This document shows positions 13,929 to 18,713 of a stretch of DNA of 64,000 bases, piece after piece (position 1 is the stretch's first letter; every line of letters begins with the position of its first letter). Where the stretch lies: positions 133 through 64,132 of the forward strand of contig JABHGC010000183.1 of assembly GCA_018672285.1 (NCBI GenBank), in the 5' to 3' direction. Under the pieces are notes generated by a model. That model saw only the letters and a list, made by a program, of their open reading frames with translations. It was not told the origin of the DNA and made no database searches. The position numbers and the translations under genes are program-made. The stretch comes from Methylococcales bacterium (GTDB taxonomy: Bacteria; Pseudomonadota; Gammaproteobacteria; JABHGC01).

Positions 13929-16502
13929 TTGAAAAAAATACTCGTAATAGAAACATCAGCAACATTGCGACACGGGCTCATTAAATCCTTGTCCGATATT
14001 CCGTATGAATTTTTAATCAATAAAAGTTATGAAGACGGATTAAAATCGCTAGAACGGTACCTCGATGCCAATCCCGATGAGCTAGTCGCCGTTATTGTTG
14101 GCTGGCCTGGGCAAACCTCGGATGCCGCAGATGAAGTCATTGCGCTTTTAGGTGAAGACGAATCACTTCGTAAGTTAGCCACACTCGTTATGGCCGTAGA
14201 AGTAGATCGAATCAAGCTTGACTGGGTGGTGCAAAGACATAACTCCGCTTTACTGCTTTGGGAAGACTATATTGATGTCTCAGTATCACTGTCTAAAATG
14301 TTGGAATCAACTGAGCCTAAAGAATCCGCGCCAGCAGTCGTCGAAAAAAAGGTCGAACTGACCGCTAAAGAAGACACTATCCGAGTGTTACTGGTCGATG
14401 ACTCCCCCACTGTTCGAGTGTTTTACAAACGTTTATTCATTAGTAATGGTTACGTCACTGAGGCGGCTTCCGGCTATAAAGAAGCACTTAAAATGGCTAA
14501 AAACAACCATTATGACGTGGCCGTTATTGATTACTTCATGCCCGATATGAATGGTGATGAGCTGGTTAAGCTTTTCAAATCTGAACCGGCTACAAGCCAT
14601 ATCTGGGCTGCCATCTTTACTGGCACATACTTAGATCAAGTCATTAAGGACTCGCTCGATGCGGGTGCTGTGGAATGTATGTTTAAAAACGAAGCCGACG
14701 AATTAGTCGTCGCTCGTTTAGATGCGGTTAGCCGAACCATTCGGGCAAACCGAAATGTCGAAAAAGAACGTAGACGACTTCAAGGCATCTTAAGTTCAGT
14801 GGGTGACGGTGTTTACGGTGTCAATACAGAAGGTTTAATCACCTTTATAAACCCTGCTGCATGTCGAATTTTAGGGCGCAAAGAACAAGATGAATTTATC
14901 GGTAAAACACCACATTCTCTTTTTCATTATGCCCTCAGTGATGGCACACCAAGCAACGAGGAAAGTTGCTATCTACAGCAAGCCTATGGCAAAGGGAAAT
15001 TGTTGCATGCTTGGGAAACCATTTTTTGGAGCGATAACTCCAAGCCGTTGCCAGTAGAATGCACTGTTTATCCGCTACAAATCGACAATCAGCTACAAGG
15101 CTCTGTGGTTGCCTTCAGAGATATATCAGAGCGGAAACTGCTAGAAGAAGAGCTGAAGTGGCAAGTCAACCACGACCACTTAACCAAATTATTAAATCGT
15201 CACTACTTTGATGACGAGCTAAAAAAAGAAGTCCGCCGATTAAAACGCTCAGAAGAAAAAAGCGCCCTGCTCTACATTGATTTAGATCGGTTTAAGTACC
15301 TCAATGATACCGCAGGCCATAGCGCAGGTGATCAGCTACTGGTAGAAGTTGGCCAGCAACTGTCTGCTCGCCTTCGTGCATCAGATATGTTGGCACGCCT
15401 AGGTGGCGATGAATTTGCGGTTATTTTGCGTAATATAAACATTGATATGGTCACAACACTTGCCGATCAATATCGTGAAGTGTTGCACTATTGTACCTTC
15501 CACTTTGAAGGGCAACAGTACAAAATTGACGGCTCTGTTGGTGTTGCCATCATTGATAAAACATCAAAATCACCTGATGAAGTTTTGGCACATGCCGATA
15601 TTGCTTGCCACATGGCAAAACAACAAGGCCGTAACCAGACCCATGTCTATGACATTGTAGAAGATGAAAAAATGTCCATGGACTTGGATTTAGGATGGTC
15701 GGCAAGGCTTCGAGAAGCCCTGTTAAACAATTTATTTGAGCTGCATTACCAGCCCATTTCAAAAATTGCAGACTTAGACTTAAATGAGTTACCGAAAGAA
15801 GGACCCCTATTAGATCCAGAAGTTGAGAGTCCTAGCCTTGTCCCTAGTCATTACGAAGTCCTGATCAGATTACGAATGGATCCTGAGGGACCTTTGATTT
15901 TTCCCAATACTTTTTTGCCAACAGCAGAACGCTTCAATTTAATGCAAGAGATTGATCGCTGGGTAATTGAGCGTGCCATTCAACAACTGGCCTTATCCAA
16001 TAGCACCGGCCAAAAAGCAAACTTTGCCATCAATTTGTCAGGGCACAGCTTAGGGGATGATTCTGTATTACCTTTTGTCATGGAGCTGATCAAAGAATAT
16101 AACGCCAACCCCAAAAACATCATCTTTGAAATCACTGAAACGACCGCTATTTCTAATATGGAATCTGCCCAAAAACTCATTAACGAACTGAGTGCCATCG
16201 GTATTCGCTTCTCTCTAGACGATTTTGGTTGTGGTTTTAGTTCTTTTGCCCACCTAAAACAACTCCAAGCAGACTACATTAAAATTGACGGGATGTTTGT
16301 ACAAGGGATGTTATCTGACCCCATTGACCAAGCAATGGTAAGGTCAATGAATGACATCGCCCACTCTTTGGGCAAGAAAACGATTGCAGAATTTGTAGAA
16401 AATATTGATATTTTGAAAAAACTCGATGAATTTGGTGTGGACTATATCCAAGGGTATTATCTTGGTAAACCCACGACCCATATCTATAAGCACGACGAGT
16501 AA
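13929..16502 (+). CDS. REC(degenerate)-REC-PAS-GGDEF-EAL c-di-GMP enzyme
   Basis: LLVDDS/VIDYFMPD receiver, GVYGVNTEG PAS, RASDMLARLGGDEF, YEVLIR, LDDFGCGFSS, QGYY. Confidence 0.95.
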   Translation: MKKILVIETSATLRHGLIKSLSDIPYEFLINKSYEDGLKSLERYLDANPDELVAVIVGWPGQTSDAADEVIALLGEDESLRKLATLVMAVEVDRIKLDWVVQRHNSALLLWEDYIDVSVSLSKMLESTEPKESAPAVVEKKVELTAKEDTIRVLLVDDSPTVRVFYKRLFISNGYVTEAASGYKEALKMAKNNHYDVAVIDYFMPDMNGDELVKLFKSEPATSHIWAAIFTGTYLDQVIKDSLDAGAVECMFKNEADELVVARLDAVSRTIRANRNVEKERRRLQGILSSVGDGVYGVNTEGLITFINPAACRILGRKEQDEFIGKTPHSLFHYALSDGTPSNEESCYLQQAYGKGKLLHAWETIFWSDNSKPLPVECTVYPLQIDNQLQGSVVAFRDISERKLLEEELKWQVNHDHLTKLLNRHYFDDELKKEVRRLKRSEEKSALLYIDLDRFKYLNDTAGHSAGDQLLVEVGQQLSARLRASDMLARLGGDEFAVILRNINIDMVTTLADQYREVLHYCTFHFEGQQYKIDGSVGVAIIDKTSKSPDEVLAHADIACHMAKQQGRNQTHVYDIVEDEKMSMDLDLGWSARLREALLNNLFELHYQPISKIADLDLNELPKEGPLLDPEVESPSLVPSHYEVLIRLRMDPEGPLIFPNTFLPTAERFNLMQEIDRWVIERAIQQLALSNSTGQKANFAINLSGHSLGDDSVLPFVMELIKEYNANPKNIIFEITETTAISNMESAQKLINELSAIGIRFSLDDFGCGFSSFAHLKQLQADYIKIDGMFVQGMLSDPIDQAMVRSMNDIAHSLGKKTIAEFVENIDILKKLDEFGVDYIQGYYLGKPTTHIYKHDE

Positions 16503-16575
16503 GATCTGAGACAGTTGACCTTAGAAATTATTTAATGAATAGTGAAACGCTCAATGTCTTTCAAAGTGTTTTACT

Positions 16576-17517
16576 ATGCGCGGGCCTTTTCCAAACATAA
16601 AACCCTACCAAACCCATCAGCTTGCCGTCTCTGAAATACACACACTATACATCGAAGAATGTGGCAACCCCGACGGTATGCCTGTGCTTGTATTACAAGA
16701 TGAACCAGGCTTAGGTTGCCAACCCTACCATCGCCAATTTTTTAACCCAGAGCGCTACCGAATTATTTTGTTTGACCAGCGCGGCAGTGGCCGCTCAACC
16801 CCTCAGGGTGAGTTAAAAGACAACCATACCACCGCTTTATTAGACGACATTAGCCACATCCGACAGCACCTTGAAGTCACTCAATGGCTGGTCTTTGGCA
16901 ATTATTGGGGGGCGACTTTAGCGTTACTGTATGCACAAGCCCATCCATTTCATTTATTTGGGCTTGTTTTAAGCAATGTATTCTTAGGTCGAGAAGAAGA
17001 CATCGATTGGATCTTTAGCGAAGGGGCTCACCGCTTTTACCCCGAACAATGGGAAGCCTTTCAAAAAGGGGTCAGAGTCAGTGAACGACATGATTTATTA
17101 CCCGCTTACTATCAGCAACTCACCGGCAATAATGACATCGCCCAGAGACAAGCGGCTAAAAAATGGGCCAATTGGTTAGATACCCTCTCAGCAGAAGAGC
17201 TCAGTAATGACACCGATGTGAGTAGAAGCTCCTTAGGCCAAGCCCGAATTGAAGCCCATTTTTATCATCACCAATGTTTTCTCAAAGGTGACCAGATTAT
17301 GAATAATGTCCACCGATTAGAAGAAATTCCGGGTATTATTTTGCATGGACGCTATAACATTGTCAGCCCGCTCATTAATGCATGGCGACTTAAACGCCAA
17401 TGGGGTGATACCGCGATTTCTGTTTTACCGGATGTTGGCCATAACCTATTTGCACCCGCCATGACAGAAGCCATTTTAAATGCAACGTTCTTTTTTGCCG
17501 AACAATATGGAGCATAG
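16576..17517 (+). CDS. pip: Proline iminopeptidase homologue with substituted catalytic residues
   Basis: HTLYIEECGNPDG, ILFDQRGSGRSTP, QARIEAHF; upstream of dtd; GNYWG in place of GGSWG. Confidence 0.85.
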   Translation: MRGPFPNIKPYQTHQLAVSEIHTLYIEECGNPDGMPVLVLQDEPGLGCQPYHRQFFNPERYRIILFDQRGSGRSTPQGELKDNHTTALLDDISHIRQHLEVTQWLVFGNYWGATLALLYAQAHPFHLFGLVLSNVFLGREEDIDWIFSEGAHRFYPEQWEAFQKGVRVSERHDLLPAYYQQLTGNNDIAQRQAAKKWANWLDTLSAEELSNDTDVSRSSLGQARIEAHFYHHQCFLKGDQIMNNVHRLEEIPGIILHGRYNIVSPLINAWRLKRQWGDTAISVLPDVGHNLFAPAMTEAILNATFFFAEQYGA

Positions 17518-17520
17518 CGA

Positions 17521-17958
17521 GTGATCGCGTTGATTCAAAGAGTCTCATTTGCCAAGGTCGTGGTTAATAGCGAGACCATCGGTGCCATTGACCATGGCAT
17601 ACTCGCCCTGGTGTGTGTGGAAAAAGAAGACACCGATGAGCAACCGCAAAAATTACTCAACAAAGTGCTCAATTATCGAATTTTTGCCGATGATCAAGAT
17701 CGAATGAGTTTAAATGTAGGTAATGTCAACGGCGGTTTATTGCTTGTCCCACAGTTCACTTTGGCTGCCAATACCAGCAAAGGCACAAAACCCAGTTTTT
17801 CTAAGGCTGCGCCCCCTGAAATGGGCAAACGCTTATTTGATAACATGGTGACGTTAGCCCGTGGAACCGATGTTCCTATATCCACCGGGCAATTTGGCGC
17901 AGACATGCAAGTCCAACTACAAAATGAAGGGCCCGTTACCTTCTGGTTACAAGTGTAA
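17521..17958 (+). CDS. dtd: D-aminoacyl-tRNA deacylase
   Basis: ALIQRV, PQFTL, GQFGADMQV, NEGPVT with the GP motif. Confidence 0.96.
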   Translation: MIALIQRVSFAKVVVNSETIGAIDHGILALVCVEKEDTDEQPQKLLNKVLNYRIFADDQDRMSLNVGNVNGGLLLVPQFTLAANTSKGTKPSFSKAAPPEMGKRLFDNMVTLARGTDVPISTGQFGADMQVQLQNEGPVTFWLQV

Positions 17959-17963
17959 CCAGA

Positions 17964-18713
17964 CTATGCAATACACATCCCTGCTTGAGTTAAACAAGCG
18001 GCTTGGGCATCTCGCCACTCTTTAACATTGGCTAAAGCATGTTTGAGTTTATCAACGACTTGCGCGACTGCCGACTTTAAGGATGGCAAAGCGGCTTGGC
18101 TAGAAAGCTCATTGTTGACCAATGCCTGGCTAAGCAACGACTCGATCTTTTCTTCCGTTGTTTGAATATCACTGGCAATATCAAGTAACCCTGTTAAGCA
18201 GTTAAAGGTGCGCTCAGCCCGTTCAATACTATTCACAAAATCAAGTAATTCACGCTGCATATCCATATCAGCATCCATTAAATCATAGCGATTACCTAAA
18301 ATGGTTAATGCACTGGCGTGGCCCTCGTAAACATCATTTAAATCGTGAACTAAGGCTTTAATCAGGTCACCCTGTTGCTGCTCAGTTCCAATTAAATCTG
18401 TAATTTCATGGCGTAAACGCTCTGTTTCTTCTCCAATTTTATCGTATAACGCTTGTTTTTTAGTTTGATGCTCTAAATTGTCCTCATCAAGCTCCGTTTG
18501 TAAAATGAGGATAATCTCTTGTTTCTCTTCGGCTGTTGTAAAAAATTCCAAATTATTAAAAACTGAGTCTGCTAATTTTTCTTGAGCATGTTTAATCAAC
18601 AACAGCTCATTTTTCACCAATCTAAATTCGTTGAGCTTTTGGTACCGGCCATCTGTGTGGTCATTACCAAAATGGATATCAACGTCATTTACAGCGATTG
18701 CTAACCCCATCAC
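17964..18713 (-). CDS. Hypothetical helical/coiled-coil protein
   Basis: 249-aa ORF with GGAAGG RBS; heptad-rich; no family recognised. Confidence 0.7.
   Translation of the reverse strand: MMGLAIAVNDVDIHFGNDHTDGRYQKLNEFRLVKNELLLIKHAQEKLADSVFNNLEFFTTAEEKQEIILILQTELDEDNLEHQTKKQALYDKIGEETERLRHEITDLIGTEQQQGDLIKALVHDLNDVYEGHASALTILGNRYDLMDADMDMQRELLDFVNSIERAERTFNCLTGLLDIASDIQTTEEKIESLLSQALVNNELSSQAALPSLKSAVAQVVDKLKHALANVKEWRDAQAACLTQAGMCIA

Follow-up and report, generated by a model that had tools for sequence, protein, structure and literature searches.

The window analysed here is a stretch of 64,000 nucleotides from the genome of a marine Methylococcales bacterium. It contains a gene for a homolog of prolyl aminopeptidase (proline iminopeptidase, PIP) without the catalytic triad of the family. 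What does such a protein do, and why has its gene been kept? The sequence-only reading of the locus had described the product as a pseudoenzyme selected for a non-catalytic role such as ligand sensing or scaffolding, possibly linked to the adjacent dtd gene or to the upstream c-di-GMP enzyme. The features discussed below are listed in Table 1.

Table 1. Positions of the pip-like gene, its altered active-site elements and its neighbors in the window
Feature	Position	Strand	Basis
REC-PAS-GGDEF-EAL gene, syntenic neighbor, ends 73 nt upstream of pip	13929..16502	+	
Promoter-like sequence (TTGACC-17-AATAGT) between the GGDEF-EAL gene and pip	16515..16543	+	Consensus match only
Pseudo-PIP, triad-less prolyl aminopeptidase homolog, 313 aa	16576..17517	+	ORF, TIGR01249, 1AZW, AF2/Foldseek
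Former oxyanion loop, Q41-D42-E43-P44-G45 replacing HGGPG	16696..16710	+	Alignments; ortholog PDQPG
Nucleophile elbow, G108-N109-Y110-W111-G112 replacing GGSWG; Ser to Tyr (TAT)	16897..16911	+	Alignments
Leu201, aligned with Glu204 of 1QTR, which anchors the substrate	17176..17178	+	Alignments
Asn261 replacing the triad Asp (G258-R259-Y260-N261 for GRYD)	17356..17358	+	Alignments; ortholog also Asn
Kept triad His289 (G288-H289, H289 at 17440-17442), then clade-specific Asn290	17440..17445	+	
dtd (D-aminoacyl-tRNA deacylase), GTG start 3 nt past the pip stop	17521..17958	+	TIGR00256, 187 bits

Fold and active site of the PIP homolog

The gene starts with ATG, and its frame contains no internal stop codons. 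The product, called pseudo-PIP here, scores 304.2 bits against the NCBIfam equivalog model of prolyl aminopeptidase (TIGR01249), the cut-off of which is 259.75 bits. It aligns from end to end with PIP from Xanthomonas (1AZW, E 9.8e-85), prolyl aminopeptidase (PAP) from Serratia (1QTR, E 1.2e-72), and also the yeast structure 5YHP. The open reading frame and these alignments agree with the earlier description of a full-length homolog with an intact frame. The AlphaFold2 model of pseudo-PIP, computed from a 76-sequence alignment, has a pLDDT of 94.1 and a pTM of 0.93, and Foldseek superimposes it on 1AZW with a TM-score of 0.95 and an rmsd of 1.5 Å. The confidence of the model is lower only in the cap loop formed by residues ~201–220, where the Glu204 region is shortened. 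The alpha/beta-hydrolase core and the helical cap domain are both present in the predicted structure. Pseudo-PIP is 42% identical to 1AZW in the structural alignment, and resembles canonical prolyl aminopeptidases (MEROPS S33.001; 1AZW from Xanthomonas, 1QTR and 1WM1 from Serratia) in its length, in its core and cap, and in the slot of its gene upstream of dtd. The source genome is 96.8% complete and contains neither another TIGR01249 match above the cut-off nor a TIGR01250-type enzyme; a second active pip, for which the sequence-only reading had advised a search, was thus not found.

The catalytic triad of PAP is composed of Ser113, Asp268, and His296, and the substrate is recognized by Phe139, Tyr149, Glu204, Glu232, and Phe236, of which Glu204 and Glu232 anchor its N-terminal imino group (PMC9147577). 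Ser, Asp, and His occupy the triad columns in 242 of the 269 fetched homologs, indicating that pseudo-PIP, with Tyr110, Asn261, and His289, is a real departure from the norm of the family. The GxSxG elbow is missing together with the triad, and the small residues at the Nu-2 and Nu+2 positions of the elbow are retained. In the 242 canonical homologs, the His and the two Gly residues of the oxyanion loop are 99–100% conserved, whereas pseudo-PIP has lost the HGGPG motif. Residue correspondences outside the triad were counted along the 1QTR alignment, in which Leu201 takes the place of Glu204 (the MAFFT alignment has a gap in this column; the sequence there is NW-L), Glu232 is retained as E226, and Tyr149 and Tyr150 of 1QTR are replaced in the window protein by Ile and Phe. 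In total, pseudo-PIP differs from canonical PIP in the nucleophile (Ser to Tyr), the acid (Asp to Asn), the oxyanion loop (HGG to QDE), the loss of Glu204, the replacement of Arg-Gly at positions 136–137 of 1QTR by Ser-Asn, and that of Cys271 by Ser.

The alignments to 1AZW and 1QTR confirm each of the motif changes that had been noticed in the sequence (GGSWG to GNYWG, HGGPG to QDEPG, and GRYD to GRYN, with His alone left), and the loss of Glu204 adds to them a change that had not been reported. As predicted from its residues, pseudo-PIP cannot employ the Ser-Asp-His peptidase mechanism, and it lacks the electrostatic anchor for an N-terminal proline. In the Ser-Asp-His sense, with the triad and the oxyanion loop lost, its designation as a pseudoenzyme stands.

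Conservation of the altered active site in a second lineage

One diverged ortholog of pseudo-PIP is known, P0002, which is encoded on Logan contig L048 from a different metagenome and has 59% sequence identity. The motifs of the ortholog are (L)PDQPG in the oxyanion loop, GNFWG in the elbow, where Phe is encoded by TTC, and GRFN at the former acid. The triad His is kept. Glu204 is absent from both the window protein and the ortholog, so that neither has the complete Glu204 and Glu232 anchor of the imino group, and Glu232 is replaced by Gln in the ortholog. The contig L048 is syntenic with the window: it also contains a convergent 251-residue gene that is 63% identical to the one at positions 17964..18713 (-) of the window, and the start of hisB at its end. 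Because the ortholog has the same losses, the substitutions are not private to one strain.

The changes common to the two proteins are concentrated at the former active site. Positions were considered family-conserved if they were at least 85% conserved in the canonical homologs, and there are 71 of them. Both the window protein and the ortholog retain 53 of these (75%), and both have changes at another 11. Of the latter, at least nine belong to active-site elements: three to the oxyanion loop, two to the elbow, two to the Arg-Gly pair 136–137 of 1QTR, one is the acid, and one is Cys271. The new residues at family-invariant positions are identical in the two proteins in five cases (D42, N109, N134, N261, and I281) and similar in four (Y/F110, E/Q43, S/C133, and S/T264), so that the simplest assumption is a loss in an ancestor shared by both lineages. 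Catalysis would have been lost there once. Among the residues that the two proteins share and that occur in <5% of canonical PIPs are D42, N109, N134, N261, N290, and L291, all of which sit in loops of the former catalytic center. The loss of catalytic residues combined with the retention of the fold and of scaffold residues, as predicted by the alignments and the model, is the pattern of a pseudoenzyme.

The pip-like genes of the window and L048 differ with a dN of 0.32 and a saturated dS, and the neighboring gene of the same pair of genomes has a dN of 0.26 and also a saturated dS. Neutral drift over such a distance would erase the similarity and the open frame. The values thus indicate that purifying selection has acted on the frame from the split of the two lineages onward, and that the divergence of the frame is far below neutral, in agreement with the dN/dS ratio below one expected in the sequence-only reading. 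Pseudo-PIP therefore appears to be maintained by purifying selection, as judged from a single pairwise comparison of two lineages.

Closer copies of the gene are present in two assemblies. Positions 89-1030 of L049, an ENA assembly of the same organism with a coverage of 2.7x, match the window sequence except for three SNPs, and the flanks are identical. The SNPs result in the differences S74A, T75A, and N261S, so that three are nonsynonymous and none is synonymous; they may be errors, real polymorphism, or a sign of weak constraint. The JGI metagenome contig L052 is identical to the window over 2461 nt, and may share its source data with the window genome. An estimate of dN/dS within the species was discarded because three SNPs at 2.7x coverage are too few and possibly errors, and L052 does not differ from the window.

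It could be argued from the three nonsynonymous differences in L049, and from the complete loss of pip in genomes of the same family described below, that the gene was inactivated recently and is drifting to a pseudogene, or that its sequence is a sequencing or assembly artefact. However, frameshifts and stops are absent from the window, L048, L049, and L052 copies, which is not the state of a decaying pseudogene. The same sequence was recovered in L049 and in L052, with the above reservation about the origin of the latter. Furthermore, the substitutions are common to a deeply diverged ortholog and are clustered at the active site instead of being scattered. This explanation is already largely refuted, and we consider it extremely unlikely.

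The ortholog also bears on whether pseudo-PIP might have remained a peptidase or esterase, with an unconventional residue serving as the nucleophile. The retained His, and the fold and cap that are intact in the predicted structure, would be compatible with such an activity. However, the elbow provides no conserved nucleophile, since the residue is Tyr in one lineage and Phe in the other, and the hydroxyl of Tyr110 is therefore not a replacement for that of Ser. The acid is missing as well, as are the oxyanion loop and the Glu that anchors the substrate, and hydrolysis by pseudo-PIP is hardly credible.

The window clade is rare, and two lineages of it are known. When 1.84 billion representatives were searched with a profile, the clade was retrieved only as its own cluster (675 bits), and the next match scored 321 bits. 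Scanning of metagenomes for further members provided only the 100% identical L052. Relatives in the scanned genome contigs are at most 45% identical, and the triad of Ser, Asp, and His is present in every one examined.

Gene neighborhood

Homologs of pip adjoin dtd in ten other loci, nine of which contain canonical pip genes and one the Ser-less gene of L050. The occurrence of nine canonical pip genes followed by dtd indicates that the window gene occupies the ancestral pip slot, and it would be the positional ortholog of pip in the gammaproteobacterial pip-dtd pair. A terminator-like site was not found between the GGDEF-EAL gene and pip. The dtd gene of the window is the only one of the genome, and the GGAG sequence upstream of its start is located within the 3' end of pip.

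The small distance between the two genes, the position of GGAG inside pip, and the presence of a single dtd copy could indicate that the frame is a relic that stays open solely to serve dtd, for which it would supply a promoter, a ribosome-binding site, or translational coupling, and that the protein is functionless. The strong constraint on the amino-acid sequence (59% identity with saturated dS, and 75% of the family-conserved positions kept) speaks against such a relic, as do two other loci. In L048, pseudo-pip is present and is not followed by dtd. Conversely, in the same-family genome G001, dtd comes immediately after an ortholog of the GGDEF-EAL gene (59% identity) and overlaps it by 4 nt (L069, G001:C280, 3279-6268), and no remnant of pip is detectable between them. 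A function limited to the support of dtd is therefore very unlikely.

The arrangement in G001, where the c-di-GMP enzyme and dtd look like parts of one operon, is also informative about the requirement for pip. Another genome of the same family, G002, has neither pip nor dtd. The absence of pip from both genomes indicates that its role is dispensable in some relatives. Pseudo-PIP is thus not universally needed in the family, and one sister genus has deleted pip cleanly.

A required link of pseudo-PIP to dtd or to the c-di-GMP gene, both of which had been put forward from the sequence, is not supported by L048 without dtd and G001 without pip. The proposed connection to dtd is weak, as the two genes occur apart in these loci, and a literature search found no report of a functional link between pip and dtd. 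The proposed connection to the upstream c-di-GMP enzyme fares no better, as G001 keeps the GGDEF-EAL gene and dtd without pip. In G003, the nearest canonical relative, the order of genes is GGDEF, HAD hydrolase, pip, and dtd, and the architecture of the GGDEF protein differs from that in the window. A functional tie to the GGDEF-EAL gene is not supported by these two genomes, and the order GGDEF-EAL, pip, and dtd looks like inherited synteny instead of evidence for a functional link.

The gene at positions 17964-18713 (-) of the window encodes a 249-residue protein that is probably a coiled coil and has no match in Pfam, NCBIfam, or the PDB. It is still convergent to pseudo-pip in L048 (63% identity), although the dtd gene that separates them in the window is missing there.

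Ser-less homologs and the possible role of pseudo-PIP

About 6% of the fetched PIP homologs are without the nucleophile Ser, and 16 full-length ones have Gly, Ala, Asp, or Arg at this position of the elbow. Glu204 is also replaced in nearly all of the 16, with WE changed to WQ, WH, WL, WR, or WK. One clade, formed by P0043, P0058, P0083, P0117, and the protein of genome G038, is characterized by the motifs HSGPG, GG[AG]WG, and WQ, the last of which reflects the change of Glu204 to Gln. In two of its members, P0058 and that of G038, the triad Asp is replaced by Asn. The genes of this HSGPG clade are found in various surroundings: the gene of L050 (4001-5403) is in a pip-dtd-mlaA-spoU position, the same slot as that of the window gene; that of L051 (2988-3947) is among Legionella_OMP neighbors; and that of G038 (L010) is the only pip-family gene of its genome. 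Scattered lineages with Gly in place of Ser also occur, such as the cluster P0128; it has 124 members, and public records list several of them as 'prolyl aminopeptidase' or 'proline iminopeptidase'.

The HSGPG and Ser-to-Gly homologs resemble the window clade in that they belong to the same family and have lost Ser, and usually also Glu204. In contrast to the window clade, they have retained His41 as well as the second Gly of the oxyanion loop, and their elbow residue is small, Ala or Gly. The window clade alone has lost His41 and both oxyanion glycines, and alone carries a bulky aromatic residue at the elbow. In a quick tree, the majority of the Ser-less sequences formed one weak group. In a careful tree calculated without the active-site columns, the window clade is not joined to these homologs and receives no firm position, its stem is long (0.82), and the Ser-less state requires at least eight changes; in an AU test, joining the window clade to the HSGPG clade was not rejected (p 0.67). 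A single origin of all Ser-less PIPs was discarded, given the weak grouping in the quick tree and the number of changes required in the careful one. The loss of Ser is treated here as recurrent and the window clade as a probably separate and most extreme case of it.

Three side observations concern members of the family. The P0128 cluster (e.g. MAI53706.1 from Gammaproteobacteria bacterium TMED95) is abundant and marine, and has FGGGFG in the elbow while HGGPG, Glu204, Asp, and His are kept. P0165 has Asp at the nucleophile position (GCDWG) and, by analogy with epoxide hydrolases and dehalogenases, may have switched to Asp-nucleophile chemistry. A canonical pip homolog in a genome of the same class (L018; G018:C6:66003-66944) contains one in-frame TGA within an open frame of 464 residues.

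Proteins that have retained the alpha/beta-hydrolase fold without catalysis are known. [quoted passage not shown] They are similar to pseudo-PIP in their retained fold, the loss of catalytic residues, the frequent presence of the His, and their maintenance by selection. However, they are mostly eukaryotic adhesion or receptor proteins of the cholinesterase branch, whereas pseudo-PIP is a cytoplasmic, bacterial derivative of an S33 peptidase. Given the ESTHER examples, the retention of His289 is not evidence of activity.

The main rival to a non-catalytic role is a new Ser-independent chemistry. Pseudo-PIP would then be a neofunctionalized enzyme catalyzing a reaction of the decarboxylase, lyase, or isomerase type, or activating water by His, with the use of His289, Asp42, and Asn residues. 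His289 is invariant, and the two lineages share D42, N109, N134, N261, and N290, which are located in active-site loops; together, they would fit a new catalytic site equally well. The fold also provides a precedent, since methylketone synthase 1 (MKS1) from tomato has Ala at the position of the nucleophile and is nevertheless a 3-ketoacid decarboxylase (PMC3531081). MKS1 is like pseudo-PIP a Ser-less member of the fold, and shows that such proteins can remain enzymes, but it is a plant protein from a hydroxynitrile-lyase-like subfamily, and nothing at the window locus indicates a ketoacid substrate. More generally, no metabolic genes in the neighborhood hint at a substrate. Bulky acidic residues replace the glycines of the oxyanion hole, and the variation between Tyr and Phe at the elbow indicates that a hydroxyl is not essential and that the residue probably fills the pocket. 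The frequent presence of His in non-catalytic members of the fold further weakens the argument from His289, and we regard new chemistry as a somewhat unlikely explanation.

Since the catalytic residues were lost and selection nevertheless kept the gene, pseudo-PIP very probably does a different job from the cutting of peptides. The best explanation, to which we assign a probability of roughly 0.55, is that it has lost its peptidase chemistry and is kept by selection for a non-hydrolytic binding or structural role. In the mechanism proposed for this role, the aromatic residue of the elbow would fill the old proline pocket, and D42, N109, N134, N261, and N290 would, together with His289, either fix the loops in place or create a new polar site. 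The ligand or partner of the protein would not be the former Pro-peptide substrate. Sensing of this substrate appears unlikely, because both proteins have lost Glu204 and the ortholog has Gln instead of Glu232. Thus, the part of the sequence-only reading that proposed a non-catalytic role gains support from purifying selection, whereas the sensing it mentioned would probably not be that of the old substrate.

A broader possibility is that PIPs of the pip-dtd type have a second, non-peptidase role, and that in the window clade the former pocket was remodeled into an Asn-rich polar site (D42, N109, N134, N261, H289, and N290) that binds a small ligand or metal or performs a new Ser-independent reaction. 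We consider this rather improbable. If true, a second role of PIP would explain why Ser-less copies arose repeatedly (at least eight changes) and persist as the sole pip of a genome, as in the window genome and G038.

The lost active site has consequences for annotation. A pipeline that uses the TIGR01249 cut-off would presumably call pseudo-PIP a prolyl aminopeptidase. Its score above the cut-off, and the Ser-less relatives that already bear this name, indicate that genomes such as that of the window are probably credited with a peptidase activity that they lack. No description of a catalytically dead prolyl aminopeptidase was found in a literature search, and, to our knowledge, bacterial pseudoenzymes with the alpha/beta-hydrolase fold have been little studied. 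A conserved clade that has no triad and whose pocket has been rebuilt lends itself to the study of the fate of proteins after the loss of catalysis, and could reveal whether PIP has a moonlighting role.
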